Positions 25,067-57,507 of a stretch of 64,000 nt of DNA are shown in pieces. Origin of the DNA: a virus (lineage: Duplodnaviria; Caudoviricetes); IMG/VR virus record IMGVR_UViG_3300037067_018912, positions 224,001 through 288,000 of that record. One strand, 5' to 3'. Numbering within the stretch: position 1 is the stretch's first letter; each line of letters opens with the position of its first letter. The notes under the pieces are model-generated. The model was not told where the DNA came from. It searched no databases and saw only the letters and a list, made by a program, of their open reading frames with translations. Both the position numbers and the translations under genes were made by a program.

Positions 25067-25097
25067 TTTGTATTTATAATTCCAAGTATTATATTTG
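25067..25097 (+). promoter_or_regulatory. Bacteroidota sigma-A-type promoter of tRNA operon 1
   Basis: TTTG(25067-70)-N19-TATATTTG(25090-97). Confidence 0.8.
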
Positions 25098-25119
25098 CAA
25101 CAAATTATTTGATATTGTC

Positions 25120-25188
25120 ATGAGAAATTTAGTTCATATCCAGCCCCAACATCAACCACCGCAAGTGGAACGGGGTTACTATGTCTAA
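25120..25188 (+). CDS. Attenuator leader peptide 1 (His/Gln/Pro), MRNLVHIQPQHQPPQVERGYYV
   Basis: 22-aa ORF between promoter and terminator; 9 of 10 consecutive codons are His/Gln/Pro. Confidence 0.85.
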   Translation: MRNLVHIQPQHQPPQVERGYYV

Positions 25189-25221
25189 ATTTTCGTAAAA
25201 AAATTTTTAGTTAAACTAAGG

Positions 25222-25255
25222 AAACCCCGTTCGCAAGAGCGGGGTTTTTTTGTTT
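25222..25255 (+). terminator. Attenuator terminator 1
   Basis: AAACCCCGTTC-GCAA-GAGCGGGGTTT plus T run; 5' arm complementary to GAACGGGGTT at 25168-25177. Confidence 0.9.
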
Positions 25256-25331
25256 CAGGGAGTGGGAAAGTCGGTAATCCGCTTGCTTCGGGAGCAAGAG
25301 ACCGCCAGTTCGAATCTGGCCTTCCTGACCA
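25256..25331 (+). tRNA. tRNA-Pro(CGG)
   Basis: Cloverleaf, CTTGC-TT-CGG-GA-GCAAG, CCA encoded. Confidence 0.9.
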
Positions 25332-25334
25332 TAT

Positions 25335-25410
25335 GGTGATTGTAGTTCAATTGGTAGAACGTCAGATTGTGGTTCTGATAGTTGTGGGTTCGAGTCCCAT
25401 CTTTCACCCA
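25335..25410 (+). tRNA. tRNA-His(GTG)
   Basis: TCAGA-TT-GTG-GT-TCTGA. Confidence 0.9.
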
Positions 25411-25435
25411 AATATCACGTAAAGACGTGATAAAT

Positions 25436-25522
25436 GAAAATATCGCCTAAAAAGGCGATAAATATAATTTATCGGCTAAAAAGGCTATAAATATAATTTA
25501 TCGGCTAAAATACCGATATTTT
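25436..25522. repeat. Tandem/inverted short repeats in tRNA spacer
   Basis: About 31-nt unit ctaaaaaggc(g/t)ataaatataatttatcgg repeated. Confidence 0.7.
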
Positions 25523-25566
25523 TGTAACAGAGTTCAGTTCTTTGACGTATAATAAAATTCTTTAAT

Positions 25567-25639
25567 CGGGACGTGGCGCAGTTGGTAGCGCACTTGCATG
25601 GGGTGCAAGGGGTCGGAAGTTCGAGTCTTCTTGTCCCGA
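25567..25639 (+). tRNA. tRNA-Pro(GGG)
   Basis: CTTGC-AT-GGG-GT-GCAAG. Confidence 0.9.
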
Positions 25640-25782
25640 CAGGTTTGTGTGAATAGAGATGGTTATCTGAGTGGCATACAGTGGGTTGCAAACTGCTGTG
25701 TGTTGAAAGGATGTACTGGGTTGCCTGCATGCAGTATCAATCTGACTCCCGTGAGGGGGTAGTATCGAAAGCACAACCACAA

Positions 25783-25855
25783 CGGATAGTAGCGAAGTTG
25801 GTATCGCACCTGCTTTGGGAGCAGGGGATCGTGGGTTCGAGTCCCGCCTATCCGA
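25783..25855 (+). tRNA. tRNA-Pro(TGG)
   Basis: CCTGC-TT-TGG-GA-GCAGG. Confidence 0.9.
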
Positions 25856-25864
25856 CTTTTATTA

Positions 25865-25937
25865 CGGGTAGTGGGAAAGTTGGTAATCCGCCTGATTTGG
25901 GATCAGGAGACCGCAGATTCGAGTTCTGCTTACCCGA
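25865..25937 (+). tRNA. tRNA-Pro(TGG)
   Basis: CCTGA-TT-TGG-GA-TCAGG. Confidence 0.85.
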
Positions 25938-25939
25938 CT

Positions 25940-26015
25940 GTGCTTGAAGTAGGCGTTGGTGTCCTACGCCAGATTGTGGCTCTGGTTTTCGGGGGTTCGA
26001 TTCCCCTCAAGCACC
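25940..26015 (+). tRNA. tRNA-His(GTG)
   Basis: CCAGA-TT-GTG-GC-TCTGG, atypical D arm. Confidence 0.8.
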
Positions 26016-26030
26016 TAAATTATTTTGAAA

Positions 26031-26321
26031 ATGAATACGAGAATTGTCATATTCCTGCTTAAAAGGATTAATCGCATAATGACCGAGTTAATGAATTATG
26101 CTGATTTACCAAAAGAAAGGTTTGATAAGTTGATATACGATTACAATTACACATATGGTGTTTTTGACAGGGTCGTCGAGAAGCACAGGCGTAATATTGA
26201 ACACATTCCCCTGATCAGGGAGTTGTCCGATTTCGAATATCACTTATACACACAGAGAGAAATGGAATTGATAAACGATGAAACTTATGATCGTCGTCAT
26301 CGTAATATTTTTCATAGATAA
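26031..26321 (+). CDS. Hypothetical protein inside tRNA operon 1
   Basis: 96-aa ORF filling the gap between tRNAs. Confidence 0.6.
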   Translation: MNTRIVIFLLKRINRIMTELMNYADLPKERFDKLIYDYNYTYGVFDRVVEKHRRNIEHIPLIRELSDFEYHLYTQREMELINDETYDRRHRNIFHR

Positions 26322-26323
26322 AT

Positions 26324-26396
26324 TGTCCCGTGGTGTAATTGGCAACACGTCTGACTCTGGATCAGTAGAGTGCAGGTTCGATTCCTGCCGGGACAG
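26324..26396 (+). tRNA. tRNA-Gln(CTG)
   Basis: CTGA-CT-CTG-GA-TCAG, T1-A72. Confidence 0.88.
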
Positions 26397-26496
26397 CGAA
26401 GTTCGGTATGAAATAGAAGGTTTTCAGAGATTTGTTCATATCGAGGTTTAGTAATTCCAAGGTCGCCAAAAGAATTAGACCAAAAAATCTCGCCAT

Positions 26497-26582
26497 TGTC
26501 CTCTGGTGGAATTGGATAAACACGTCAGTCTTTGGAACTGATGCCCACATTGGGTTTGCAGGTTCAAATCCTGCGGGGACAG
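26497..26582 (+). tRNA. tRNA-Gln(TTG) with long variable arm
   Basis: TCAGT-CT-TTG-GA-ACTGA then GCCCA-CAT-TGGGT arm. Confidence 0.8.
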
Positions 26583-26647
26583 CAAAATGCATAAAATTAA
26601 ATATACTTGCATAAAATCATGTATATTTTAATACGCTTGCATAAAAT

Positions 26648-26719
26648 TGCCTTATAGTGTAATGGCCAGCACACAACACTTTGGATGTTGGAGTTCAAGT
26701 TCGAATCTTGGTAAGGCAA
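26648..26719 (+). tRNA. tRNA-Gln(TTG)
   Basis: CAACA-CT-TTG-GA-TGTTG. Confidence 0.88.
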
Positions 26720-27676
26720 CTACCTCCTCCCACCGGAACTGTGACTTGATCCGCCGCTACTTGAACTGCGTGATCCACCACCACTGTAACTCCCGGAACT
26801 CCTGTTTGAAGAACCCGAATATGAAGGACTTGAACTCCTGTATGTCGATCCTGAATTCGATGGTCGTGAATAACTTGAACTGCTTGAACCTCGATAAGAT
26901 GAACCGGAATTCGATGATGGTCGTGAATAACTTGAACTTCTCGTAGTTGCCGGACGTGAATACGATGGCCTTGACTGAGTTCCTGTTGATGACGGTCTTG
27001 AATATATCGGTCTGTCTGTATTTGCCGGACGATTGTAAGTACGTGTTTGAGTACTTGTCGATGGTCGAGTGTAAGTATTACGAGATTGTGTCGTCGGCTT
27101 CACATATGTGTTACGAGTTTGTGTGGCAGTTCTGTTCGATTCGATAGTCCTTCTTGGTCCATAATACTCTGTGCGCCTGTTTGGAGAATGATTCGGATAC
27201 TGATAATAAGTGTGATGTGGCTGCCAATACCAATAATTGTGATTGTACCACGAATAACTGTAGAACGGCCTGTTATACCAACGGTAATGGGGCATGTACC
27301 AATCAAAACTATACCAAGAACCATACGGATAATACCAATCGTAATAGAATGGATCATACCAACCATAATAAGGTGAATGCCAATAAAAATCAAAATAGAA
27401 TGTTGGCCTCATCCTGACATCATAATCATCTTCCTCTTCATAATAGTTATTAACCACGGTAATGTTTTGGACAACCGTGTCCTTTTCCTGTTTTTGCTCA
27501 CCGGGGATGTAATAGACATCATCGTATTCTTCAACCTGTGTGGTTTGATATTTTTTTGCAGAGTCATTCTCCGCTTTTTCCTTGGCTTCACGATACTTCT
27601 CATAATCGGATTTCTCCTGTGCAAGGATTGGTATGGAAAATAGGAGTGCTATTAGTAATAACGCCAGTTTTTTCAT
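26720..27676 (-). CDS. Exported protein with signal peptide, Tyr/Trp-rich core and Ser/Arg/Gly-rich tail
   Basis: MKKLALLLIALLFSIPILAQE signal; YDDVYY; SSSYSRPS repeats. Confidence 0.8.
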   Translation of the reverse strand: MKKLALLLIALLFSIPILAQEKSDYEKYREAKEKAENDSAKKYQTTQVEEYDDVYYIPGEQKQEKDTVVQNITVVNNYYEEEDDYDVRMRPTFYFDFYWHSPYYGWYDPFYYDWYYPYGSWYSFDWYMPHYRWYNRPFYSYSWYNHNYWYWQPHHTYYQYPNHSPNRRTEYYGPRRTIESNRTATQTRNTYVKPTTQSRNTYTRPSTSTQTRTYNRPANTDRPIYSRPSSTGTQSRPSYSRPATTRSSSYSRPSSNSGSSYRGSSSSSYSRPSNSGSTYRSSSPSYSGSSNRSSGSYSGGGSRSSSSGGSSHSSGGRR

Positions 27677-29295: not shown

Positions 29296-29326
29296 TTTGT
29301 TTGTATTGTAACATTTTTTACCTTTG
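29296..29326 (+). promoter_or_regulatory. Bacteroidota-type promoter of tRNA operon 2
   Basis: TTTG(29296-99)-N19-TACCTTTG(29319-26). Confidence 0.8.
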
Positions 29327-29372: not shown

Positions 29373-29465
29373 ATGAAAAAGATGCTCGACATATTAGTAG
29401 TCCTATCAGTGGCCGTCCTGTTGTGGGATGATGCTGCAGAGGAAAAACTACATGAAGTCGGGTAA
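29373..29465 (+). CDS. Attenuator leader peptide 2 (Leu/Val/Ala/Asp/Glu/Trp), MKKMLDILVVLSVAVLLWDDAAEEKLHEVG
   Basis: 30-aa ORF; 21 residues are L/V/A/D/E/W. Confidence 0.85.
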   Translation: MKKMLDILVVLSVAVLLWDDAAEEKLHEVG

Positions 29466-29500
29466 TATTGGATACTTATTACATCTCCTTTCCTAACACG

Positions 29501-29540
29501 AAAAGACCCGGCTTCAAAAAAGACCGGGTTTTTTTGTTTT
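29501..29540 (+). terminator. Attenuator terminator 2
   Basis: AAAAGACCCGG...CCGGGTTTTTTT; 5' arm ACCCGGCTTCA pairs with TGAAGTCGGGT (29453-63). Confidence 0.88.
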
Positions 29541-29574: not shown

Positions 29575-29649
29575 GGTGCGTTAGTTCAGATTGGTTAGAA
29601 TATCGGCCTGTCACGCCGAGGGTCATGGGTTCAAGTCCCATACGCACCG
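29575..29649 (+). tRNA. tRNA-Asp(GTC)
   Basis: TCGGC-CT-GTC-AC-GCCGA. Confidence 0.92.
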
Positions 29650-29713
29650 CAAAACGCTTATCGGAAGGTAGGCGAAGCAAGGTCGTTTGAATACGTAATA
29701 GAACGATCTTGAA

Positions 29714-29787
29714 AGTCCTGTAGTTTATACGGGTGTGAATGCCCCTGCGCACGGGGGTGGTTGCTGGTTCAAATCCAGTCAGGACTG
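29714..29787 (+). ncRNA. tRNA-like element with aberrant anticodon loop
   Basis: Acceptor AGTCCTG/CAGGACT, T arm GGTTCAAATCC, anticodon region CCCCT-GCGCAC-GGGGG. Confidence 0.65.
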
Positions 29788-29793
29788 CAAATC

Positions 29794-29868
29794 GTTTCGT
29801 CGGCCTCTTCGGAGAGGAACTGGCCTGTCACGTCAGTAAAATAGAGGGTTCGAATCCCTCCGGGACGG
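29794..29868 (+). tRNA. tRNA-Asp(GTC), atypical D arm
   Basis: CTGGC-CT-GTC-AC-GTCAG. Confidence 0.75.
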
Positions 29869-29997
29869 CAAAATATCAGAACAATGAAAGTATTGGTTCG
29901 AGTCCAAGGTGGGATAATTCAGATGGCGCAGTAATGCTAAAAGTATTCCTGAACATCCTACCGCAAGGTAAAACGGATGCCTTCTGATATTTTATAT

Positions 29998-30073
29998 GCT
30001 GCGTTCGGCAAGTCCGGTTCAAGCCACCAGACCTTCAATCTGGTCATCATGGGTTCAAATCCCATACGCAGTA
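29998..30073 (+). tRNA. tRNA-Glu(TTC), C33
   Basis: CCAGA-CC-TTC-AA-TCTGG. Confidence 0.82.
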
Positions 30074-30271
30074 CAATCCTCGAAAATCAGTGGTTATCAT
30101 TTGTCCGCTGAAGACAAACAGTAAAGCAAAAAAATCGGGGCATACCCCCGCATCAGAGAGTCACTGAAACTTTACAACCCTTCCAAGAGGGTGTCGTTTG
30201 TTGAAAGATGCATAGTTTCCTCATAATTAAGGAGGTATTGCATTCCAACTTGGTAGTGGACGGACAATCAT

Positions 30272-30343
30272 GCTCGGTTCTTCTAACGGTCAGGAATTCG
30301 GGTTTTCATCCCGGCAATGGGGGTTCGATTCCCCCACCGAGTA
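30272..30343 (+). tRNA. tRNA-Glu(TTC)
   Basis: TCGGG-TT-TTC-AT-CCCGG. Confidence 0.88.
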
Positions 30344-30347
30344 CTAA

Positions 30348-30412
30348 TAATGTTGGTTATATCATACATTAAGTGGTAAAATTAAGGTTAATGTTGGTTA
30401 TATCATACATTA
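30348..30412. repeat. 24-nt direct repeat in tRNA spacer
   Basis: taatgttggttatatcatacatta occurs twice. Confidence 0.8.
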
Positions 30413-30448
30413 TGGAGTGTTTTTGTTAAACATATTTTACATTATCAT

Positions 30449-30521
30449 GTTCGGTTCTTCTAACTGGCCAGGAAAATAGGTTCTCAGCCTAAGAATAAGG
30501 GTTCGACCCCCTTACCGAATA
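30449..30521 (+). tRNA. tRNA-Glu(CTC)
   Basis: TAGG-TT-CTC-AG-CCTA. Confidence 0.85.
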
Positions 30522-30527
30522 CTTGAA

Positions 30528-30605
30528 GTCCTTTTAGTTCAGTTGGTTCAGAATGCCGCTTTCACAGAGCGGAGGTCGTTGGTTCGAATCCAACAAAGGA
30601 CACCA
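30528..30605 (+). tRNA. tRNA-Val(CAC)
   Basis: CCGCT-TT-CAC-AG-AGCGG, CCA encoded. Confidence 0.92.
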
Positions 30606-30695
30606 AATCAAACAAAAGCCAGTAAATGGCATTTAGTGTCTTTTGTTTGAAATTGGCAACGAACGATATTTAGTGCCAAAATTGTGATAATTTTC

Positions 30696-30769
30696 GCTCC
30701 TTTAACTCAGTCCGGGAGAGTGTCTGCCTTACATGCAGAAAGTCGGGGGTTCAAACCCCTCAAGGAGCA
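30696..30769 (+). tRNA. tRNA-Val(TAC)
   Basis: TCTGC-CT-TAC-AT-GCAGA. Confidence 0.92.
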
Positions 30770-30822
30770 CAAAACTATAAATCGGCAGCAAACGGCATTT
30801 AGTGCCGATTTATAGTTTACAA

Positions 30823-30897
30823 GTCCCTTTAGTTCAGTTGGTTCAGAACATCACCTTGACAGGGTGGGGGTCGTTGGTTCGAATCCAACAGGGGACA
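30823..30897 (+). tRNA. tRNA-Val(GAC)
   Basis: TCACC-TT-GAC-AG-GGTGG. Confidence 0.92.
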
Positions 30898-30995
30898 CAT
30901 GGGTTTGCAGACTTGGACAACAAATATGTCGGCAATTGCCAATATATCTTCCAACAAGATATAATACGCTGATATTGGTCTGTGAACCTATACCT

Positions 30996-31079
30996 CTCAT
31001 TGTGGTGGAATTGGTAGACACGTGCGTTCGAGGGGCGCATGCACGAAAGTGTTTGCGGGTTCAACTCCCGCCGATGAGA
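30996..31079 (+). tRNA. tRNA-Leu(GAG)
   Basis: TGCGT-TC-GAG-GG-GCGCA, long V arm GCAC-GAAA-GTGT. Confidence 0.88.
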
Positions 31080-31087
31080 CAATAAAT

Positions 31088-31161
31088 GCGGACGTAGCCG
31101 AATTGGCATAGGCGTCAGTCTTAGGAACTGATTTTTGTGGGTTCAAGTCCCACCGTCCGTA
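31088..31161 (+). tRNA. tRNA-Leu(TAG), short variable loop
   Basis: TCAGT-CT-TAG-GA-ACTGA followed by only a short T-rich loop. Confidence 0.85.
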
Positions 31162-31303
31162 CAAAAGGTGCATGACAGCAATAAGCAGTTTGGACTGCAT
31201 CACCTGTGCCGAGTTATCCTTAAATGTGAAGGAGTAATACCTTCTGAGTCTTTACATGACACTGCTTTATGTGTATTGGTTGGATAACTAAAAAGGCACA
31301 CAT

Positions 31304-31377
31304 GCAGATGTAGCCGAACTGGTATAGGCAATCGTTTCAGGGGCGATAATCTGCGGGTTCGACTCCCGCCATCTGTA
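31304..31377 (+). tRNA. tRNA-Leu(CAG), short variable loop
   Basis: ATCGT-TT-CAG-GG-GCGAT. Confidence 0.85.
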
Positions 31378-31458
31378 CGACCTTATTTTGGGTAACGAAG
31401 CCAATAGTCCCAAACACTCAGGTAGAAAATAATGGTTTCTGCATAAGGACAACTATAT

Positions 31459-31532
31459 GGGGTCGTAGCATAACTGGCTAATGCACCTGCCTTGCAAGCA
31501 GGGGACTGAGGGTTCAAGTCCCTTCGATTCCA
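31459..31532 (+). tRNA. tRNA-Ala(TGC)
   Basis: CCTGC-CT-TGC-AA-GCAGG, G3.U70. Confidence 0.92.
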
Positions 31533-31601
31533 CGCTGTCGGGTTTTTCGCACTTTTAGATTTCCGTGAGGTCAATTGACTGAGAAAGAAAAAGTGCAATT
31601 T

Positions 31602-31676
31602 GGGTCATTAGTTTAGACGGCTAAAACACTTGGTTTGCACCCAGGAGATCACGAGTTCGAGGCTCGTATGTATCCA
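31602..31676 (+). tRNA. tRNA-Ala(TGC), bulged acceptor stem
   Basis: CTTGG-TT-TGC-AC-CCAGG. Confidence 0.75.
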
Positions 31677-31741
31677 CCTGACGGGACTGTTTAGGATTTT
31701 CATAGGACTCCCAATGCAGTGCGCATAGAAAATCCAATTCC

Positions 31742-31815
31742 GGGGTCGTAGTTCAAATGGATAGAGCACCTGCCTGGCAGGCAGGGGGTTGAGGGTTCAA
31801 GTCCCTTCGATTCCA
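31742..31815 (+). tRNA. tRNA-Ala(GGC)
   Basis: CCTGC-CT-GGC-AG-GCAGG. Confidence 0.92.
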
Positions 31816-31881
31816 CTGAGACAGACTGTTAGGATTTCATAGTACCTGCTGCGTGTGGGTAGAAGCGTAGAAATTCAAATT

Positions 31882-31955
31882 GGGGTATTGGTTCAGATGG
31901 CTACAACGTCTGCTCCGCAAGCAGAAGACCGGGGGTTCGAGTCCCCCATACTCCA
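31882..31955 (+). tRNA. tRNA-Ala(CGC), C33
   Basis: TCTGC-TC-CGC-AA-GCAGA. Confidence 0.85.
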
Positions 31956-31963
31956 CAACAAAT

Positions 31964-32042
31964 GTAGTAGCATCCATTGGTGAGGTAAGCGGTCTCCAAA
32001 ACCGTGCCGAAAGGTGTGTGGGTTCGAATCCTACCTACTGCG
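31964..32042 (+). tRNA. tRNA-Trp(CCA) with variable arm
   Basis: GCGGT-CT-CCA-AA-ACCGT then GCC-GAAA-GGT. Confidence 0.8.
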
Positions 32043-32358
32043 CAACATTAATTAAATAAGAAAGCGAGGCGTGTTTTCAAACTGCGAATCAAGAATAGAA
32101 ATAAGATTTGGTGGTGGCGATTCGTTCACTACAATTATTTCCACAGAAGATTATTCCGTGAATTCTATGTGCAAAGGAAAAGATTCACAGAACGACAGAT
32201 TAGGAAATACCATTTGTACCAAAAACTCGATGATCTGATTACCTTCCGATGGTGCAAATTGTATCACAGGTTGTTATTTTGGCTCGAAGAATAAATTCCT
32301 GTATTTATTGATAACAACATTTGCTTTTATGCGTATAATGTTATAATTTTGATTTATC

Positions 32359-33102
32359 ATGTACATCATTGCAAAAAAGAAAGACTATTACGACGGGGTC
32401 GCCGGAACGGTAGGAATTGACAAGACTATTGTCTATGACCGCCAAATCGTTGAACTCGAAATCGACAAGATGCCGAAACTCTTTGGAGTTAAAAAGGGTT
32501 TTTGGGGTCTTTCGTACAAGGAAACGCCATTCAGGAAACTATCGTACCACAGCCTGAAAAGGGAATGTAAAAATGTGTGCGATGAGCATGCGTTCTTTAT
32601 TATAGGGTTCTGCGGTAAGTTCTACATTGGTTGGAAATTGTATAAGGAAGTTCGGTTCGGATGGAATGGGGTGCACGACCGGATTACAACTACGATCACA
32701 TACGACATGGATTACATCAAAACAATCCTTGAACCAAAAAGTTGGCATGGCAATCTTGCAGATAGTATTGATTACATCAAATCATACAACCCCTTGCAGA
32801 TTTTCAGGGATTTGAAAACACCCGTGTTCGTTTTCGATAGCGATTATAACAGAACGTGGATCAGTAAGAACGTATATAACGACCATAGTCCGAAGTTCTT
32901 TGTCAATCCCCTTTTGAAGGATTACGAATTCCCCAAAGTTTTCGATGCTTTTCAAACATTCCAAGAGATACAAATGTTTATCAGTGGAGTATTGGGTACA
33001 GGTGAAAAAGACATGGTCGAGATCGCCGACAAATATAAGATAATGGAGCATGGGTTCGACTATAAATGGTCTTTCAGAAAAGAACCGGAGGCGAAGAAAT
33101 GA
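32359..33102 (+). CDS. Hypothetical phage protein
   Basis: 247-aa ORF, MYIIAKKKDYYDG...HGFDYKWSFRK. Confidence 0.8.
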   Translation: MYIIAKKKDYYDGVAGTVGIDKTIVYDRQIVELEIDKMPKLFGVKKGFWGLSYKETPFRKLSYHSLKRECKNVCDEHAFFIIGFCGKFYIGWKLYKEVRFGWNGVHDRITTTITYDMDYIKTILEPKSWHGNLADSIDYIKSYNPLQIFRDLKTPVFVFDSDYNRTWISKNVYNDHSPKFFVNPLLKDYEFPKVFDAFQTFQEIQMFISGVLGTGEKDMVEIADKYKIMEHGFDYKWSFRKEPEAKK

Positions 33103-49032: not shown

Positions 49033-49037
49033 CAAAT

Positions 49038-49111: not shown

Positions 49112-49187
49112 CAAACCGCCCCCAGCGGTATATAAAATTATGAATAAGCAATGCGCATTTAGTGCTGTTCATATACTGGGGACGCAT

Positions 49188-49470: not shown

Positions 49471-49553
49471 CACTTGGCGTAACCACGGCACGAACCGTGA
49501 CTTCGGATTTGATCACCGATGAAGCATTTAATGTTGATGCAGTCATGATATTT

Positions 49554-49638
49554 GGAGAGTTGGCAGAATGGTCATTGCAACAGTCCCGAAAACTGTCGTC
49601 GTGAAAGCGGCGTGTAGGTTCGAATCCTATGCTCTCCG
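49554..49638 (+). tRNA. tRNA-Ser(CGA), C33
   Basis: ACAGT-CC-CGA-AA-ACTGT, long V arm. Confidence 0.88.
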
Positions 49639-49645
49639 CAAAATC

Positions 49646-49717
49646 GAGGAAGTAGCATTACATGGGTAGCGCAGGGGCGAAAACCCTGAGAGGTGGGTTC
49701 GATTCCTGCATTCCTCA
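49646..49717 (+). tRNA. tRNA-Phe(GAA), atypical
   Basis: CAGGG-GC-GAA-AA-CCCTG. Confidence 0.65.
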
Positions 49718-49726
49718 CTCAAACAT

Positions 49727-49815
49727 GGAAGGTTGACAGAGCGGTCTATTGTAACAGCCTGGAAAGTTGTCGTCGTGAAAGCGACGCAGGGGTTCGAATC
49801 CCTTACCTTCCGCCA
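49727..49815 (+). tRNA. tRNA-Ser(GGA)
   Basis: ACAGC-CT-GGA-AA-GTTGT, long V arm, CCA encoded. Confidence 0.9.
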
Positions 49816-50148
49816 AAATTGACTTTAATATTGGAACAAAAAGGATGTAGTGTCATGACACATTCTTCGGGGAGGTTCAAATCCTTCAGAGTCAGCAAAC
49901 GGGTTGGACTGCAATCCGACCTGTTCTCACAGGATGCTGTTACAATCGTATCATTGCAGTGATGTGGTTGATGCAAAATGTGCGAGTCCCTGTATGCATA
50001 AGATGCTGTCCTAATGTTCAGTAGCAATTCCTCTTTCGCACACATGGTTGGCAACATGAAATGTGTGAGTACGGTGTTGTTCAGAGACGTTTATGTTGGT
50101 TGCAATGCCTCCGGGTTCGTGGTATAAGGCCACAACAGGGACAAATAT

Positions 50149-50220
50149 GGAGTGGTAACTCAGCGGTAGAGTGCCTCCCTGAAGAGGAGGTGGTCGGGGG
50201 TTCAAATCCCTCTCACTCCA
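50149..50220 (+). tRNA. tRNA-Phe(GAA)
   Basis: CCTCC-CT-GAA-GA-GGAGG. Confidence 0.9.
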
Positions 50221-50556
50221 CAAAAAAGGCAGGTGGACGGATCAAATCCTGTTCCCGCAGGACAAGATTGCCGCCTTGGTGCGGACGTTCACAACGGGAC
50301 TGCCTTATACAGGTCGGGCAACCAGCGGGGTTGTTCGGGTAACTTCCTCACAAGGAATCCTGTAAAAACATTGATAAACGGGGATACCCCGCTGCGAAAG
50401 CAGTGCCCCGCCCATAAAACAGGCTTCACGAAGACCTCCAACTTTAGGTTGGTGGGCGGTCAAACGCCCGGTGAAAGGTTCGTATATCAACAGGCTCACG
50501 GAGTCCTCCAACTTAAAATTGGTGAATCTCAATAATTCAGTAAAAAGTCCGTAAAT

Positions 50557-50628
50557 GCGAGTATAGCACAACGGCCAGTGCGTCAGATTTCCAATCTGAG
50601 GATGTCAGTTCGATCCTGATTACTCGCT
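50557..50628 (+). tRNA. tRNA-Gly(TCC)
   Basis: TCAGA-TT-TCC-AA-TCTGA. Confidence 0.9.
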
Positions 50629-50635
50629 CAAACAT

Positions 50636-50715
50636 TCACGAATAACTCAGCGGTTAGAGTGCCTCGGCGGGCTTCGGCTACGAGGGAGTCGGGGGTTCAA
50701 ATCCCTCTTCGTGTA
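50636..50715 (+). ncRNA. tRNA-like RNA whose anticodon loop is replaced by a UUCG hairpin
   Basis: Canonical D and T arms; CCTCG-gcgggcttcggcta-CGAGG. Confidence 0.75.
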
Positions 50716-50767
50716 CAAAAGGTCTGAGGGAGTCCTTTGAAGGTATAAACAACCTGTCCCTCTCCAC

Positions 50768-50840
50768 GGTGGTGTGGCGCAATGGTCAGCGCAGGACTCT
50801 TATAAGGTCAAGGTTGGGGGTTCAAGTCCCTTCACCACTA
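50768..50840 (+). tRNA. tRNA-Ile(TAT)
   Basis: GACT-CT-TAT-AA-GGTC. Confidence 0.85.
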
Positions 50841-50847
50841 CAAAAAT

Positions 50848-50932
50848 GTTTGGTTAGTCAAGTGGCCGACGACAGCAGGCTGTTAACCTGCCGAGAGAAA
50901 TCCCATCGTAGGTTCGAATCCTACATCAAACG
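50848..50932 (+). tRNA. tRNA-Asn(GTT) with long variable region
   Basis: GCAGG-CT-GTT-AA-CCTGC then 16-nt V region. Confidence 0.8.
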
Positions 50933-50978
50933 CAAATCATTTCCAAACCCTTATAGTATTTATGTGAAAATTAATGAT

Positions 50979-51230
50979 ATGAAGAAGGTTTGGGAAAGTC
51001 TCAAGTGGTTTTTCAGCAGATGGATGCTCGTGTTGGTTGTGCTTATTGTATTGGGGATAATCGCAACGTTCATAATAAAATTCACAACACATACAGAAGA
51101 ACCATACAAAATTCCATTGTTCATCATCGGTGGTTGGGGGGTATTTGTCGTTCTCTTCACTTGGGTGAGAGAGATTTATTGGAAAATTGCAGGTAAAGGT
51201 GATTATGCTAAAAAGGACGAAAAGAAATGA
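50979..51230 (+). CDS. Small membrane protein (2 TM)
   Basis: MKKVWESLKW..., two hydrophobic segments. Confidence 0.7.
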   Translation: MKKVWESLKWFFSRWMLVLVVLIVLGIIATFIIKFTTHTEEPYKIPLFIIGGWGVFVVLFTWVREIYWKIAGKGDYAKKDEKK

Positions 51231-51604
51231 ATATAATTTCGATTCTATTATTCTTTTTCGCCGGGGTTTGCAATGCCTGCATGGATGTATTAAGAACGAG
51301 ATATAACACTTCTACATTTCGTTTTTGGCGGAATCAGAATTGGGTGAACCCGGCATTATCATGGCCGAATAAATGGAAGCCAAAGTCGAAATTCGGTGAT
51401 CTTATTATGTCGACAGTCCTTGTATGGGTAACTGATTTTTGGCATATGTGTAAAATGTTGATGATTCTTTGTTTTACAATGGGAGCGATTTTTTATCAAC
51501 CAATTTTTGACTTTTCAAAATTTTGGTTGGATTTGTTGATTTTATATTTTATATTCACAGGAACATTTGAACTGTTTTTCAGCAAAGTGCTAATAAAGAA
51601 ATGA
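51227..51604 (+). CDS. Membrane protein
   Basis: 125 aa, SWPNKWK...VWVTDFWHMCK. Confidence 0.75.
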   Translation: MNIISILLFFFAGVCNACMDVLRTRYNTSTFRFWRNQNWVNPALSWPNKWKPKSKFGDLIMSTVLVWVTDFWHMCKMLMILCFTMGAIFYQPIFDFSKFWLDLLILYFIFTGTFELFFSKVLIKK

Positions 51605-51635
51605 CAATCATGTAAAATAATAAAGGGACATATTG

Positions 51636-52544
51636 ATGATCAAGATTTTCAAAACTTTCGGCGGGTGCGAAAGCGCAACCAAATTGGAAAAGGGATGTTG
51701 GATAGATGTGATTCAACCTACACAAGACGAGATTGAAGAAATAATAAACGGTTTTAACCTGCCCCCCGATAGTATACAAGACATTCTTGACGCCGATGAA
51801 ATGCCCCGTCTTGAAATCGACGACACTTACACCTTGATCATCATGCGTATTCCGGTGGAGAATTCACAAAACGGAATACCTTATTACACAATACCTCTTG
51901 GAATTTTTGTGACGGAAGATTTCACAATCACGATTTGTAATCAGGACAATGAAATCATTCAACCGAAACAATTGAGTAGCACGGCGGACACATACAATTT
52001 TATTTTGAAATTTTTTGTCAGATCAGCGAGTGTTTTTTTGAAATACCTTAAACAAATCAATCAACAGACAAGTCAAATCGAAAAGGATTTGGAAGAATCA
52101 ATTAAGAACAGTGAATTGAAAAAACTGTTGAAGATGGAAAAATGCCTTGTGTACTTCATTACTGCAATAAAATCGAATGAAATCGTCCTTCACCGTTTAA
52201 AAAACTCGAAAAGGATCACGGGTGAAATCAATGAAGACCTTTATGAGGACGCATTGATTGAAAACAGGCAGGCACTTGAAATGGCGCAGATATATTCAGA
52301 CATCTTGAGCGGGATGATGGACGCATTTGCCTCGATCATTTCGAACAACCTAAATGTGATAATGAAGAAATTGACGCTCATTTCAATAATACTCATGATC
52401 CCGACCCTTATCGCAAGTATATTCGGAATGAACATTCCGAATTTCATGGAAGGTTCAAATTGGGCGTTGCCTTCAATAATAATATTATCCCTATCACTGT
52501 CTTTGATCAGTGTGAAACTGATGAGAAACAAGCAGTGGTTTTAA
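51636..52544 (+). CDS. corA: CorA-family Mg2+ transporter
   Basis: ISNNLNVIMKKLT...PTLIASIFGMN signature. Confidence 0.92.
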   Translation: MIKIFKTFGGCESATKLEKGCWIDVIQPTQDEIEEIINGFNLPPDSIQDILDADEMPRLEIDDTYTLIIMRIPVENSQNGIPYYTIPLGIFVTEDFTITICNQDNEIIQPKQLSSTADTYNFILKFFVRSASVFLKYLKQINQQTSQIEKDLEESIKNSELKKLLKMEKCLVYFITAIKSNEIVLHRLKNSKRITGEINEDLYEDALIENRQALEMAQIYSDILSGMMDAFASIISNNLNVIMKKLTLISIILMIPTLIASIFGMNIPNFMEGSNWALPSIIILSLSLSLISVKLMRNKQWF

Positions 52545-52548
52545 AAAT

Positions 52549-52632
52549 GCCGATATCGCATAGTTGGTCAATTGCGCCGCACTTGTAATGCGGAGAAGAA
52601 ATTCTTCGTGGGTTCGAATCCCGCTATCGGCT
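52549..52632 (+). tRNA. tRNA-Thr(TGT) with long variable arm
   Basis: CCGCA-CT-TGT-AA-TGCGG then AGAA-GAAA-TTCT. Confidence 0.85.
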
Positions 52633-52734
52633 CAAAAGTAGGTGAAAAAGCGAAAGGATAACCTTCGGTATCAGGAAAACCTTTCACGGGTGCGGGAATA
52701 GACCGACTTGAACCGCACCCCGCTTATTTAAGTT

Positions 52735-52806
52735 GCCGATATAGCACAGCGGTAGTGCACCTGTTTCGTAAACAGGGGGTCGCAGGTTCAAATCCCGCTA
52801 TCGGCT
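52735..52806 (+). tRNA. tRNA-Thr(CGT)
   Basis: CCTGT-TT-CGT-AA-ACAGG. Confidence 0.9.
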
Positions 52807-52846
52807 CAAATCCTTGCTATTCTCCCTAATTTTTCCTAATTTTAAT

Positions 52847-52918
52847 GCCTCTATAGTTCAAGGGACAGAACAGAAGTTTTCTAAACTTCCGATCATGGTT
52901 CGAGTCCATGTGGGGGTA
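52847..52918 (+). tRNA. tRNA-Arg(TCT)
   Basis: GAAGT-TT-TCT-AA-ACTTC. Confidence 0.9.
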
Positions 52919-52932
52919 CTAAATAAATTAAA

Positions 52933-53166
52933 ATGTATACAGTTATCTGCCCGAAATGCAAGAAGTCCTTCACTGTGTCGGGTGACACCGAATACGTTCT
53001 TTGTTGCGATGAGGTGATATTCATCCCATCTAATGGTCCTGAAATGAAAGGCATCACTTTCCAATGCATACAGGAGGGGTTAATGAGGGATGGACGCAAC
53101 GTCGACCGGATATTTCTTGGTGATCCAAATGAAAGTATTGCACCCGATCCATACGAAGGATTGTGA
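52933..53166 (+). CDS. Small Cys-containing protein
   Basis: CPKC...CC. Confidence 0.55.
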   Translation: MYTVICPKCKKSFTVSGDTEYVLCCDEVIFIPSNGPEMKGITFQCIQEGLMRDGRNVDRIFLGDPNESIAPDPYEGL

Positions 53167-53329
53167 TGCGTTTTACGGTAAAGAAAATGAACGGCAAGGT
53201 CGCCTTTATGAATGAAAACAAAAGGTGGGTCAAACTCAATGGTTACGCTTTCCTTGATGAATACGGCCATTGCATCATAATTGTTTATGGTGAAGCGAGA
53301 ATGAAAGATGTTGAAAAGTATTTAAGTAT

Positions 53330-53401
53330 GCCCCTGTAGTTCAATGGACAGAACGGAAGTTTCCTAAACTTTAAATTCGAGTTCGATTCTCGGTGGGGGT
53401 A
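53330..53401 (+). tRNA. tRNA-Arg(CCT)
   Basis: GAAGT-TT-CCT-AA-ACTTT. Confidence 0.88.
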
Positions 53402-53493
53402 CAAAAACAGACAAATATTATCCGTCAATATGCAAAAACGTATAATAACCGGATAATAAATATCCTTATATGTAAAAGCATATAATAACATTC

Positions 53494-53565
53494 GCTCCCG
53501 TAGTTCAACGGATAGAACGCAAGTTTCCGGAACTTGTGATGCAAGTTCGATTCTTGTCGGGAGTA
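53494..53565 (+). tRNA. tRNA-Arg(CCG)
   Basis: CAAGT-TT-CCG-GA-ACTTG. Confidence 0.9.
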
Positions 53566-53592
53566 CAAGGTATTTATGTGAAAAGTAAATCA

Positions 53593-54069
53593 ATGAACAA
53601 CACCAAATTGAATGAAGAGATTCTGACCGCATACCGGGGTGGTGGGGAAATGCCGAGTCAAAGAAGGCTTTGGTACTTTACAACAAACGTCAAATATGCA
53701 AATTGGTTCAAGAGATACGCTTCCCTTGGAAAAGGCAAATTGTTTAAAGCGGATATAAGCACGGACAACCTTCTCGATTTGAGGTTTGTGACAAAACAGT
53801 TGAATTATCTTGATCTTCATTACATTTTAAAAAACAATGGAATAAGACCACCAAAATTCGTAATTGAAAACATTGAAGCGGGTTATGGTGGATACAAAGG
53901 TAATCTTTGGGAGTTCTTGAAAGAAGACAATGAATTGTGGGACAACATCTCAGAGAAATACGACGGAGTTATTTTCACCGAGACGAATCCGGAAGCGAGA
54001 CATACGGGCAAGGCGGAGACTATAATAATTGATATGATCAAGCACCCGGTCGAATATGAAGAAGTATAA
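53593..54069 (+). CDS. ADP-ribosyltransferase-like protein (tentative)
   Basis: AYRG...WYFTT..KYA...YDGVIF pattern. Confidence 0.5.
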   Translation: MNNTKLNEEILTAYRGGGEMPSQRRLWYFTTNVKYANWFKRYASLGKGKLFKADISTDNLLDLRFVTKQLNYLDLHYILKNNGIRPPKFVIENIEAGYGGYKGNLWEFLKEDNELWDNISEKYDGVIFTETNPEARHTGKAETIIIDMIKHPVEYEEV

Positions 54070-54072
54070 TAT

Positions 54073-54146
54073 GCACCTGTAGTGTAACTGGACAACACGT
54101 CTGACTACGGATCAGGAGATTGAGGGTTCGAATCCTTTCAGGTGTA
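54073..54146 (+). tRNA. tRNA-Arg(ACG)
   Basis: TCTGA-CT-ACG-GA-TCAGG. Confidence 0.92.
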
Positions 54147-54256
54147 CTAAAACCATAAGCCTATAGTCCAATATTCGAGAGTAACTTCTCAGAAGGGCAC
54201 GGTGTACAACGGAATTCAGGTATGAAATCCTGATGGGAACAACTTATGGTTTAATT

Positions 54257-54329
54257 GCAGAAATGGCGCAATCGGTAGCGCATGGCCTTCCCAAGGCCAG
54301 GGTTGCGGGTTCGAGACCCGTTTTCTGCT
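54257..54329 (+). tRNA. tRNA-Gly(CCC)
   Basis: TGGCC-TT-CCC-AA-GGCCA. Confidence 0.92.
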
Positions 54330-54337
54330 CAAATTTT

Positions 54338-54412
54338 GCGGGAATAGCACAGTGGTAGTGCGTTTGCTTGCCAAGCAAAAGGTCGTGAGTTCAAGCCTCA
54401 TTTCCCGCTCCA
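54338..54412 (+). tRNA. tRNA-Gly(GCC)
   Basis: TTTGC-TT-GCC-AA-GCAAA, CCA encoded. Confidence 0.92.
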
Positions 54413-54413
54413 T

Positions 54414-54486
54414 GCGAGATTAGCACAGTTGGTTAGTGTATCGGCTTGCCATGCCGGGAACGTGGGTTCGAATCCCATATCTTGCT
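54414..54486 (+). tRNA. tRNA-Gly(GCC)
   Basis: TCGGC-TT-GCC-AT-GCCGG. Confidence 0.88.
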
Positions 54487-54501
54487 CAAAATTATGTTGT
54501 T

Positions 54502-55215
54502 ATGTCATTTACTTTTACACTTAAATCAACAGGAGAAGAGATAACACTCCCAACACCAAGCGGTGGTCCGGTTGAAATTGACTCTTTACCTTCCGAACCA
54601 TTGGAAATGAAGTACAGGACGATCGTGGTATCTGACCTGCACATTTTCAGAGATGATTCGAAATACAAAGAGTGTTTTAAATTTTTGATATACAATCCCT
54701 CGGAGAAGATCATCCTGAACGGTGATATCTTCGATTTCCTGCACCTGCTCAAGCATTGGTCGAATTATAAAAAGTACAAATACGTCATGCGAGGGTTCAG
54801 GATATTCATGAAGGAGAGGGGGACAAAGGTGATCTTCCTCGTCGGCAATCACGACTATCATTATTACCTGTTGAAGATCATACAACCCTTCCTGGGGATC
54901 AAAATTAGAAAATTTTATACTTTCGAATCAATTGCCGGGAGGATTCATGCCACACACGGAGATTGGATACCCTACGTGTTAAAGATCAAAAGGTTCTTCA
55001 ATAAAACAATCAAGATATCCGGCAACGAGGATGATGATTACGTCCTCTACGGATTATTAAAGAAATACAATGTCCTCATTTGCGGACACACACATGAACC
55101 GCTGTACAGGATTTACAACAACCTCCTCTACATCAACACAGGCGATTGGGTGAGCGATAACATGGCCGCCGTGGAAGAATTCGACGGGAGTTGGCATTTG
55201 ATACAAACACAATAA
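54502..55215 (+). CDS. Calcineurin-like metallophosphoesterase (LpxH-like)
   Basis: SDLH, NGDIFD, GNHD, HGD, CGHTH, YINTGDWV. Confidence 0.88.
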   Translation: MSFTFTLKSTGEEITLPTPSGGPVEIDSLPSEPLEMKYRTIVVSDLHIFRDDSKYKECFKFLIYNPSEKIILNGDIFDFLHLLKHWSNYKKYKYVMRGFRIFMKERGTKVIFLVGNHDYHYYLLKIIQPFLGIKIRKFYTFESIAGRIHATHGDWIPYVLKIKRFFNKTIKISGNEDDDYVLYGLLKKYNVLICGHTHEPLYRIYNNLLYINTGDWVSDNMAAVEEFDGSWHLIQTQ

Positions 55216-55222
55216 GAACGGT

Positions 55223-55537
55223 ATGAAAGGGATCATAAAATACAATACCAGGTTTTACAAAAAATCTGATAAACCCCTCAAAGAGGGTGATTTAGTTAAA
55301 CTTGAATGTAAAAGAGGTAGCGATTATTTCAAATACAATGGAATATATACCGTCAACAAATGGAACGAAATATTAGTTCCACTTAAAGAAGAAAACGGTA
55401 AAAAATATAATCTTTGTATTAAACTTGGATACAACGTTTTTAAACACGAGGAATACTCCAAATTGGTTGAGGTTCAAAGAAGGAAGTCCCTTCCAAAACC
55501 AGTGAAAGAAGAACAAATGTGTGGTTATACAATATGA
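55223..55537 (+). CDS. Hypothetical protein
   Basis: 104-aa ORF. Confidence 0.6.
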   Translation: MKGIIKYNTRFYKKSDKPLKEGDLVKLECKRGSDYFKYNGIYTVNKWNEILVPLKEENGKKYNLCIKLGYNVFKHEEYSKLVEVQRRKSLPKPVKEEQMCGYTI

Positions 55538-55554
55538 TCTACCCCACCACACAA

Positions 55555-55813
55555 AAAACATAGCACAGAGGATTCATCGCTTGTTCAATAAAATCGTCTG
55601 TTCACTGTACGTGAACATTCAAAAATATTGAACAAGAGGAAGTTCGGGACACCACTGCTGAAGGCGGGAGATTCAACGCTAATCGGGATCGCCAATACCG
55701 CCGAGGGTGCAAGCCAAACAGTTTGAGACGGTGAGCAGGTCTTTGAGAACGGGTTGGTGCGTAGATAAATGATGATTAACAACAGAATCCCGGCTACGCT
55801 CATGCTATGTTTT
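55555..55813 (+). ncRNA. rnpB: RNase P RNA with strongly reduced specificity domain
   Basis: P1 AAAACATAGCA/TGCTATGTTTT; P2 TCATC/GATGA; P3 CTTGTTCAATA/TATTGAACAAG; P4 strands GAGGAAGTTCGGGAC and AGATAAATGA...ACAGAATCCCGGCTA. Confidence 0.85.
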
Positions 55814-55969
55814 AAAATTTTTGACGAATGAATCGAAATCAGTGACGAATGGATGAGAATCATTAATGAAATTAATGTGTTTTAGTCATAATTTAGTCTT
55901 GAAACTCTTATCATTGTAACAAGTCCGGTTTTTTTTCGTATCTTTGTCAGGTAATCAAAACAATCTTGC

Positions 55970-56281
55970 ATGACAACATTATTGAAAAAGGATATCAAAC
56001 GGGAGACGTTCTCCGTAACAGACTTCAAAGGCAACGTAATGATCGTTACCCTAAAAGCGGGTGACATGATCGAGTTCAGAGCGAAAGGTAAGAGGATCAA
56101 GTACGAAGTACCGCTTGCCGCCTGTTTCAACTTGGCAATGATCTATTCCGCACACGAGCGATATAAGGAAAGGATTAAACGCTACGAGGATGGTCGCAAG
56201 GAAGGCCGGAAAATGAAAAGGCCAAGATTGATGCCAAGGATTTTCAATGAAAGATTGTATCAGGCATTGAAATTAATTTAA
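55970..56281 (+). CDS. Hypothetical protein
   Basis: 103-aa ORF with TATCTTTG promoter-like site upstream. Confidence 0.7.
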   Translation: MTTLLKKDIKRETFSVTDFKGNVMIVTLKAGDMIEFRAKGKRIKYEVPLAACFNLAMIYSAHERYKERIKRYEDGRKEGRKMKRPRLMPRIFNERLYQALKLI

Positions 56282-56439
56282 TATATTTGTGTTATGACAT
56301 CGGAGAGTAAGAGAAAGAAGGAGAAAAACAACACGCATAGTGCCAACGGGTTTGCGTTGAAAGAGCATGAATGTAAAATGAAAAGAGCATTGTATTTCAA
56401 TTCATCAAAAAGACAAAAACTCAAAAAAATCGACACCGA

Positions 56440-56808
56440 ATGAACCAAGAATTATGGGAAATATTAGTCCCCTCTTTCAGTAACGGTGGTGAAAAATTTC
56501 CGCTCGAACACCATAAGAAATGGGATGCCTTTGTCAAGAAGATCGCAAAAGGCGTGACGATCATGAAAACTGCCAAAGGTGAATGGGTTAGTCCGACCGG
56601 ACAGGTCTATATGGACAGAATGATCCCATGCCGAATCATTTGTAATGAAAGTCAAATGGATAAAATTATTGATTTCACTATTGAGCATTACGACCAAGAG
56701 GCTGTTCTTGCGTACAAGATTTCGGACAACGTGATCCTGCGCCACAGGAATGACAAGAGCATTAACGAGGACGTCCAAAGACTTTGGAATCAAAGAAACT
56801 ACAGATGA
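56440..56808 (+). CDS. Hypothetical phage protein
   Basis: 122 aa, LWEILVP...KGEWVSP...HYDQEAVLAY. Confidence 0.75.
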   Translation: MNQELWEILVPSFSNGGEKFPLEHHKKWDAFVKKIAKGVTIMKTAKGEWVSPTGQVYMDRMIPCRIICNESQMDKIIDFTIEHYDQEAVLAYKISDNVILRHRNDKSINEDVQRLWNQRNYR

Positions 56809-57002
56809 TACCAATTAAGGATATATTACCTTGTCCGTTTTGCGGAGCACAGGTGAAAGATCATCCGAATCCGATAACCAGTAAGGAATTTTTTATGGTA
56901 AGGCACATGAATGGTTGTTATTTCTTAAAAAATAATTCATCGGATTTCACCTTATTATTGAAAAACGATTATTATATAAAAAGTTGGAATAAAAGAATAT
57001 AA
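56805..57002 (+). CDS. Small CxxC protein (PCPFCG...WNKR)
   Basis: Lar-like zinc-ribbon pattern. Confidence 0.55.
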   Translation: MIPIKDILPCPFCGAQVKDHPNPITSKEFFMVRHMNGCYFLKNNSSDFTLLLKNDYYIKSWNKRI

Positions 57003-57004
57003 TC

Positions 57005-57196
57005 ATGGGAATGTTCGGTGAAATACATGCAGGAATGAATGCTGAACAATTGGAAAAAATCCTTTTGGAGGCAATAAAGGAAAATGACACCATCAAAGCA
57101 TTTGCAAAAAAACATCTGTATCAGTGGTATCTGTCCGAATGCAGTGAAGCGTTCCGTGAATCGAACCATGAAATAAAAGATGAATTTGAAGATTAA
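57005..57196 (+). CDS. Hypothetical protein
   Basis: 63-aa ORF in a packed run. Confidence 0.55.
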   Translation: MGMFGEIHAGMNAEQLEKILLEAIKENDTIKAFAKKHLYQWYLSECSEAFRESNHEIKDEFED

Positions 57197-57200
57197 AAAC

Positions 57201-57413
57201 ATGGAAATTGAAACAGTAAACGATTTGGCAGAACAGATAGCCGACTGGATTGGCATCTATGGCGGCTGTAAATCAGATGGGGAAAGTGGTTGCACATACG
57301 ATAAATTCAAAAATCCTTGTTGCTGCCGCACAGGTTTTATCACCGCTATGGAGGAAAGGATAAGAGAAGCGGTGGAGAATGAAAAAAAACTCGAACAAGC
57401 GGGTTTGAAATAA
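57201..57413 (+). CDS. Hypothetical Cys-rich protein
   Basis: MEIETVNDLAE...PCCCR. Confidence 0.6.
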   Translation: MEIETVNDLAEQIADWIGIYGGCKSDGESGCTYDKFKNPCCCRTGFITAMEERIREAVENEKKLEQAGLK

Positions 57414-57418
57414 AATAA

Positions 57419-57507
57419 GGAAGGGTGGGTGAGTGGCTGAAACCACCTGTTTGCTAAACAGACGTGCGGGGCAACCTGCACCGGGGGTTCAAATCCCCCT
57501 CCTTCCG
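57419..57507 (+). tRNA. tRNA-Ser(GCT)
   Basis: CTGT-TT-GCT-AA-ACAG, long V arm. Confidence 0.9.

Follow-up and report, generated by a model that had tools for sequence, protein, structure and literature searches.

We analysed a stretch of 64,000 nucleotides (hereafter the window), which comprises positions 224,001 to 288,000 of the virus record IMGVR_UViG_3300037067_018912 (Caudoviricetes) and in which four arrays of transfer RNA (tRNA) genes each lie behind a promoter, a short open reading frame (ORF) and an intrinsic terminator. These four cassettes are best read as multivalent ribosome-mediated transcription attenuators of tRNA blocks that would exert negative feedback on decoding speed, and we put the probability of this reading at about 0.88. 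It rests on layout, codon matching, conservation and covariation in the sequence, together with a folding model of how the position of a stalled ribosome would set the switch; from these we infer that the leaders are translated and that termination, read-through and feedback take place. A preliminary description of the same DNA had proposed an attenuation-type architecture, which is supported by conservation, covariation, the position of the codons within the leaders, a genome-wide control and relatives that carry a single array.

Four leader-terminator cassettes precede sorted tRNA arrays

The cassettes had been placed at 25067, 29296, 40552 and 48352, and promoters are located at exactly these positions. 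As anticipated for ORFs of 22-41 amino acids (aa), the leaders found encode 22, 30, 30 and 41 aa, and in all four cassettes a 3' segment of the leader (segment 2) is complementary to the 5' arm of the terminator. The first gene behind each of the four terminators is a tRNA. The parts of the cassettes are as follows, with the transfer-messenger RNA abbreviated as tmRNA:

25067..25097 (+): promoter of cassette 1, of the Bacteroidota -33/-7 type, overlapped by a GTATTTA motif at 25070
25120..25188 (+): leader ORF 1, 22 aa, whose sensing part (codons 2-14) contains His/Gln/Pro codons
25167..25178 (+): cassette 1 segment 2 (antiterminator 5' strand), complementary to the terminator arm
25221..25251 (+): cassette 1 intrinsic terminator, hairpin 3:4 plus T run
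25256..26720 (+): tRNA array 1, four Pro, two His and three Gln tRNAs (ARAGORN, Rfam)
29296..29326 (+): cassette 2 promoter, GTATTTA motif at 29331
29373..29465 (+): leader ORF 2, 30 aa, Asp/Glu/Val/Leu/Ala/Trp/Met codons, segment 2 at 29454-29464
29500..29535 (+): cassette 2 intrinsic terminator
29575..36112 (+): tRNA array 2, with Asp, Glu, Val, Leu, Ala and Trp tRNAs up to 32043 and, after 32043 (+), ORFs, the tmRNA (33755-34118), Leu(TAA), Leu(CAA) and Met(CAT)
40552..40582 (+): cassette 3 promoter, GTATTTA motif at 40564
40620..40712 (+): leader ORF 3, 30 aa, 8/8 of its Lys/Tyr codons within codons 7-16, segment 2 at 40678-40686
40737..40767 (+): cassette 3 intrinsic terminator
40778..41880 (+): tRNA array 3, four Lys and two Tyr tRNAs, with a terminator at its end (41852)
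48352..48382 (+): promoter of cassette 4, shielded by a terminator upstream (~48300), GTATTTA motif at 48387
48437..48562 (+): leader ORF 4, 41 aa, Thr/Cys/Asn/Ile/Ser/Phe/Gly/Arg codons, segment 2 at 48539-48550
48589..48619 (+): cassette 4 intrinsic terminator
48663..57508 (+): tRNA array 4, 22 tRNAs (Thr, Cys, Asn, Ile, Ser, Phe, Gly, Arg) with interspersed ORFs

For segment 2 of cassette 1 two alternative pairings are predicted, 1:2 with the Gln/Pro codons and 2:3 with the terminator arm. The promoter pattern TTTG-N19-TAnnTTTG occurs only seven times on the + strand of the window. The whole genome has 70 terminator-like hairpins, of which only those of the four cassettes are accompanied by a -7 box, a short ORF and a leader segment that forms a strong duplex with the terminator arm. 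The promoters at 32320, 45906 and 59285 were considered as candidates for a fifth cassette and rejected, as they have no leader-terminator. A pair consisting of a tRNA with a TCA (opal) anticodon and a Met tRNA lies behind a Bacteroidota-type promoter outside the window (L041, genome positions 157500-162000, - strand), surrounded by other tRNA-like RNAs; it lacks a leader-terminator as well and was likewise discarded as a fifth cassette.

ARAGORN and Rfam confirm the arrays and the sorting of the tRNAs into four amino-acid sets, {P,H,Q}, {D,E,V,L,A,W,M}, {K,Y} and {T,C,N,I,S,F,G,R}, which do not overlap and total 20. The overlap between arrays is 0, compared to a minimum of 11 in 200,000 shuffles, a significance that is overstated because tandem genes are not independent. 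Members of no set are an amber-suppressor tRNA (58907-58981), the tmRNA and several tRNA-like elements, all located inside the arrays or behind them.

Leader codons match the downstream tRNAs

The leaders had been described as enriched in the amino acids of their own set, and a permutation test bears this out. Own-set residues make up 68/119 positions of the four leaders pooled or, individually, 9/21, 22/29, 8/29 and 29/40 compared to 1.8, 10.3, 3.5 and 17.5 expected (p=2.5e-5, 1.1e-5, 0.02 and 2.3e-4 for leaders 1-4). When amino acids were jointly reassigned to sets, the observed match was reached in 0/10^6 permutations. For the K/Y leader as a whole the enrichment is only weak, since the 3' half of this ORF is taken up by RNA structure, including a conserved predicted 1:2 hairpin. 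The matching codons are concentrated in the sensing parts: the own-set share in the sensing part versus the tail is 0.70/0.04, 0.89/0.38, 0.58/0.09 and 0.88/0.71 for leaders 1-4.

It had further been claimed that the leaders sample nearly every isoacceptor encoded downstream. For this phage that holds, since 42/44 anticodon types are represented by a codon in the leader of their cassette, compared to 34.8 expected given the same peptides (p=0.0005); Ala(CGC) and Arg(CCG) are the two that are not. The diversity of synonymous codons alone is not above chance, leader 2 excepted. Isoacceptor-level sampling also extends to the two single-array phages described below; in most relatives, however, it is not significant. 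The resolution of sensing is that of the block and not of the single tRNA.

Leaders and predicted switches are conserved in related phages

Using the neighbouring vWA protein as a marker, we retrieved 27 loci at 58-78% identity. These relatives and their records gave 10 distinct leaders of cassette 1, 13 of cassette 2, 16 of cassette 3 and 17 of cassette 4. The relatives are not independent, which makes all p-values across phages optimistic. None of 56 leaders (0/56) lacks any amino acid of its own set. The peptides themselves diverge and their lengths change by whole codons; the start codon and the reading frame are conserved, and a -7 box is found upstream of 53/57 leaders. The start context is A-rich at positions -3, -6, -12 and -13 (0.60-0.79 versus ~0.31), as is typical of well-translated Flavobacterium genes. 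Among the invariant positions are a Leu-Trp pair in leader 2 and Ser-Arg and Phe-Cys pairs in leader 4. The sorting of the tRNAs has few exceptions in the relatives, namely one Phe in array 1, one Leu in array 3, and one Gln and one Pro in arrays 4. A pattern scan added further copies of cassette 2, each followed by the same tRNA set. Across phages the presence of a codon tracks the presence of its tRNA weakly (p=0.004), a correlation that is confounded by cut arrays and kinship.

Conserved leader ORFs with covarying terminator/antiterminator pairs, for which a search among related phages had been suggested, were found for all four cassettes. The segment most complementary to the terminator 5' arm is located, for most cassettes, within the last 1-30 bases of the leader. 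Leaders pair better with their own terminator arm than with the arms of relatives (p=0.036, 0.002, 0.002 and 0.003 for cassettes 1-4, again optimistic owing to kinship), and better with arms of their own cassette than with those of other cassettes. In cassette 1 a double change is seen: the pair is C-G in the window and in relative L046, and U-A in the others, and the C-G change in the window also turns a conserved Trp codon into Arg. In cassette 3, L028 and L021 differ on both pairing sides, and cassette 4 shows several pair types.

Two more distant phages have one unsorted array of ~40 tRNAs behind one leader of 41-42 aa (L051, 11-200; L053, 464-660, minus strand), with the same terminator/antiterminator layout as the four-cassette phages. 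Both leaders contain all 20 amino acids, for which the chance is ~0.003 per peptide, the two phages being related to each other, and they cover 30/37 and 29/36 anticodon types (p=0.006 and 0.011).

The position of a stalled ribosome is predicted to set the switch

We modelled the switch by equilibrium folding in which the ribosome footprint was masked codon by codon. For the leaders of the window, this footprint model gives antiterminator probabilities of ~0.7-1.0 for stalls in the sensing part and of 0.00-0.30 for a ribosome at the stop codon. Modelled stalls at codons 2-14, 2-25, 3-16 and 2-31 of leaders 1-4 allow the antiterminator to form, and its probability collapses beyond them. In the model, the matching codons are therefore located where a stalled ribosome would free the antiterminator. 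A 1:2 hairpin of the protector or pause type is predicted in cassette 1, and in cassette 3 this prediction is conserved.

The proposed mechanism would then work as follows. RNA polymerase would start at the promoter, and a host ribosome would translate the leader. Fast decoding of the sensing part would lead the ribosome to cover segment 2, or segment 2 would pair back with segment 1; in either case the terminator would form and transcription would end before the first tRNA. If charged, intact tRNA is scarce for any codon of the set, the ribosome would stall in the sensing part, segment 2 would pair with the terminator 5' arm and the polymerase would enter the array. The new tRNAs would speed up decoding of the leader and close the switch again, so that four feedback channels would cover the 20 amino acids.

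Several observations weigh against this reading. In the equilibrium model, cassettes 2 and 4 show no clear off state without a ribosome, and the same is true for cassettes 3 and 4 of the relatives, in which the antiterminator moreover is still free when the ribosome is at the stop codon (means 0.84 and 0.72). When the full-length RNA is folded to equilibrium, cassettes 2-4 end up in the terminator form regardless of the ribosome; the switch must therefore be kinetic and decided during transcription. A few relatives (L008, L010) have weak antiterminators. One reduced phage counts as mixed evidence: its array 2 lacks Glu and Met tRNAs and its leader lacks Glu and Met codons, but that leader starts at ATA and its cassette 4 has a Cys tRNA and no Cys codon, which suggests that the system may be decaying there. 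Furthermore, theory predicts modest sensitivity when few regulatory codons stand among many (PMC1183508); as each amino acid has 1-6 codons in a stretch of up to 30, low sensitivity to single tRNAs is expected, and the system may respond to severe tRNA loss rather than to fine changes.

A last point concerns the reach of the control. Internal promoter-like sites, among them GTATTTA copies and -7 boxes, are found within arrays 2 and 4:

32301-32351, 35184 and 35376 (+): promoter-like sites in array 2
50956, 53318, 53570, 55939 and 56282 (+): promoter-like motifs in array 4

Because of these sites, the tmRNA, Leu(TAA), Leu(CAA), Met and the distal Thr, Arg, Gly and Ser tRNAs may also be present on unattenuated transcripts. 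Their codons are still kept in the leaders, which suggests that the distal tRNAs are at least partly under leader control. The claim that each leader governs its whole tRNA operon is therefore open to doubt where the distal tRNAs of arrays 2 and 4 are concerned.

Probable purpose of the cassettes and alternative explanations

We consider it rather likely that the cassettes serve the on-demand replacement of tRNAs that are lost to host anticodon nucleases or to general decay during infection. The same attenuator might instead report host amino-acid starvation, which we regard as possible yet clearly less probable. Classical attenuators respond to uncharged tRNA (PMC1183508) and the mechanism cannot separate uncharged from missing tRNA; moreover, matching is complete by amino acid in 56/56 leaders and only partial by isoacceptor in most relatives. 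However, extra tRNA cures missing and not uncharged tRNA: it supplies no amino acid and may even lower the charged fraction of other isoacceptors (PMC1183508). The isoacceptor coverage of the window's leaders (42/44) and of the single-array leaders (30/37 and 29/36) also speaks for tRNA loss, as does the weak and confounded tracking of codons and tRNAs across phages. Thus, of the earlier proposal that the switch senses a shortage of charged tRNA, the attenuator part is supported by sequence and model, while starvation is a less likely trigger than tRNA loss. PrrC, PARIS and retron-Eco7 are known to target Lys and Tyr tRNAs; that these two have a cassette of their own fits counter-defence, but is suggestive only. 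With odds slightly better than even, the system as a whole would be a codon-resolved, self-correcting monitor of the entire decoding capacity of the host and an inducible, RNA-only counter-defence, in which the four translated leaders would register the loss of nearly any tRNA, for instance to anticodon-nuclease defences, and switch on the matching block.

Any slowing of translation, a shut-off of host translation by the phage or an antiterminator protein might open all four terminators, in which case the cassettes would be a general timer of the translation state with an inherited codon match that no longer confers specificity. Upstream ORFs that sense many types of stalls do exist (toiL, 10.1101/682021), and stage-specific control is probably also present, given the probable phage promoter motif before 55/56 leaders and three sigma-like proteins. 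For such a timer, a division into four leaders would be unnecessary, as would the restriction of set-specific codons to the sensing part, and the peptides drift freely within their set, yet never lose a member of it; we therefore hold it to be improbable. It is more improbable still that the peptides act as small proteins, or that the leaders are untranslated switches bound by a protein or, like T-boxes, by tRNA. Some leader positions are indeed invariant (Leu-Trp; Ser-Arg, Phe-Cys), but base pairing of segment 2 explains the invariant 3' residues, no T-box or riboswitch family matches in Rfam, and the composition follows the downstream tRNAs and extends to all 20 amino acids in front of an unsorted array. 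Finally, short ORFs in AT-rich spacers and constitutive terminators might have produced the arrangement by chance, and G-rich 3' arms do ease short complements to G-runs, and at 11/70 terminators a duplex of -9.5 kcal/mol or stronger is found upstream. However, a promoter for 9-22 tRNA genes would be useless if a constitutive terminator stood directly behind it, and the codon match, the covariation and the genome-wide control speak against chance; conservation across 56 distinct leaders led us to reject a chance origin, to which we assign next to no probability.

Promoter motifs, genome and host context

The GTATTTA motif, which precedes 55/56 leaders, is also found before 51/333 long ORFs on the sense strand compared to 5 on the antisense strand. 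Throughout the window it lies 10-25 bases upstream of many ORFs (e.g. at 4006, 21758, 24713, 27737, 43004 and 45888), and it is absent from the single-array leaders of L051 and L053. It is probably a phage promoter element, and each cassette may therefore be read by both a host and a phage sigma factor.

The window is part of a complete virus record of 357,275 bases with terminal repeats. The genome is that of a T4-like phage and encodes a T4-type major capsid protein as well as a domain of the poly(A) polymerase/CCA-adding family and three sigma-70-like proteins; a glutamyl/glutaminyl-tRNA synthetase gene is absent. Inside the window lie 59/61 of its tRNA/tmRNA genes. The promoters of the window match the Bacteroidota -33/-7 consensus (PMC6847099), and the ribonucleotide reductase has its best matches in uncultured phages (60%) and crAss-like phages (~41%), the nearest cultured ones being Bacteroides phages (~41%). 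Promoter type and reductase matches together point to a Bacteroidota host. In the phage collection no cultured relative was found, and the array DNA matched only single tRNAs. In the partial regions covered of Flavobacterium phage immuto and Lak-B1, no terminator lies directly before the tRNAs.

Two contigs of the same phage family (L184 and L185) were deposited in metagenome-assembled genomes (MAGs) labelled Anaerolinea and Paceibacterota, which are probably binning errors. The pattern scan in cellular genomes, which was limited to the sequence of cassette 2 and unable to find host systems of different sequence, recovered these two contigs, which have the tRNA order of the phage family, one of them also its tmRNA tag; we read both as phage contigs binned into MAGs.

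Further elements were seen in and around the arrays. The tmRNA (33755-34118) encodes a long tag peptide and is conserved within array 2 of the relatives. A tRNA-Ile with a TAT anticodon (50768-50841) is replaced at the same position in some relatives by a CAT tRNA, which probably is an AUA-reading Ile tRNA. Four tRNA-like elements (29714-29788, 41389-41501, 49646-49717 and 50636-50715) have normal acceptor and T arms and abnormal anticodon arms, and are candidate pseudogenes or decoys. Array 4 also contains a gene for a CorA-like magnesium transporter (51633-52544). Downstream of it, a PTH2-type peptidyl-tRNA hydrolase gene (Pfam PF01981, 59366-59695, +) has an in-frame TAG at codon 3 and is directly preceded by the amber-suppressor tRNA. 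L017 and L056 share this TAG and likewise have an amber tRNA upstream of the gene; elsewhere TAG remains a stop codon (13/242 long ORFs). Possibly, amber readthrough gates the hydrolase.

Comparison with known systems

T-box riboswitches are terminator/antiterminator switches that bind uncharged tRNA directly and without translation. The phage cassettes resemble them as switches that would report tRNA charging, and differ in that, according to our model, charging would be read via translation. No T-box control of tRNA operons was found in the literature. Nor was any paper found on leader-peptide attenuation of tRNA genes, in a search outside of which most subscription journals lay; this agrees with the preliminary description, which knew of none. 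If true, the cassettes would be the first such case.

The nearest functional analogue is the trn operon of Anabaena, a long accessory tRNA array that is normally silent and is induced by translational stress, with TrcR as its repressor (PMC10272220). A ribbon-helix-helix repressor acts there at initiation on one block, and the abstract mentions no codon-specific sensing. Why phages carry tRNA genes has long been open, with codon compensation and replacement of destroyed host tRNAs as the contrasting views, and phage tRNAs are reported to replace host tRNAs cut by defence nucleases (PMC10264068). For example, tRNA-Tyr of T5 counters retron-Eco7 PtuAB and tRNA-Lys counters PrrC (PMC11555353), and a phage tRNA-Lys counters PARIS (PMC11464382). 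The portions available of these reports describe strong promoters or resistance to cleavage for counter-defence tRNAs and no demand-driven switch. In the cassettes, the regulatory sequence itself would show what the phage monitors, namely the decoding speed of the codons read by its tRNAs. The leader design argues for on-demand replacement over constant supplementation and would explain the sorting by amino acid. Moreover, the cassettes would offer ready-made sensors of tRNA availability for Bacteroidota.

The closest mechanistic relatives are leader-peptide attenuators, such as trpL, hisL, leuL and pheL of E. coli, the multivalent thrL and ilvL, and pheM of pheST. The mechanism of ribosome-mediated attenuation of amino-acid operons is described in PMC1183508. 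The phage cassettes share with them a promoter, an ORF with control codons, overlapping antiterminator and terminator, and a stall position that would decide between the two. As in this class, a short ORF with cognate control codons stands before the first gene and the terminator is predicted to be exclusive with the antiterminator; as in the thr and ilv leaders, several amino acids would be sensed by one leader. An Rfam scan found only tRNA and tmRNA, and at the gathering score neither a T-box nor any leader family (trp, his, leu, thr, phe, ilv, pheST). Since there is no such match and the target is different, the cassettes belong to no named leader family. Unlike in the amino-acid operons, their output is tRNA and not enzymes or a synthetase, their leaders hold up to 8 (or 20) amino acids in scattered synonymous codons rather than in runs, and four parallel cassettes tile the whole code. 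A textbook mechanism would thereby be extended to a new class of targets, to phages and to coverage of the full code.

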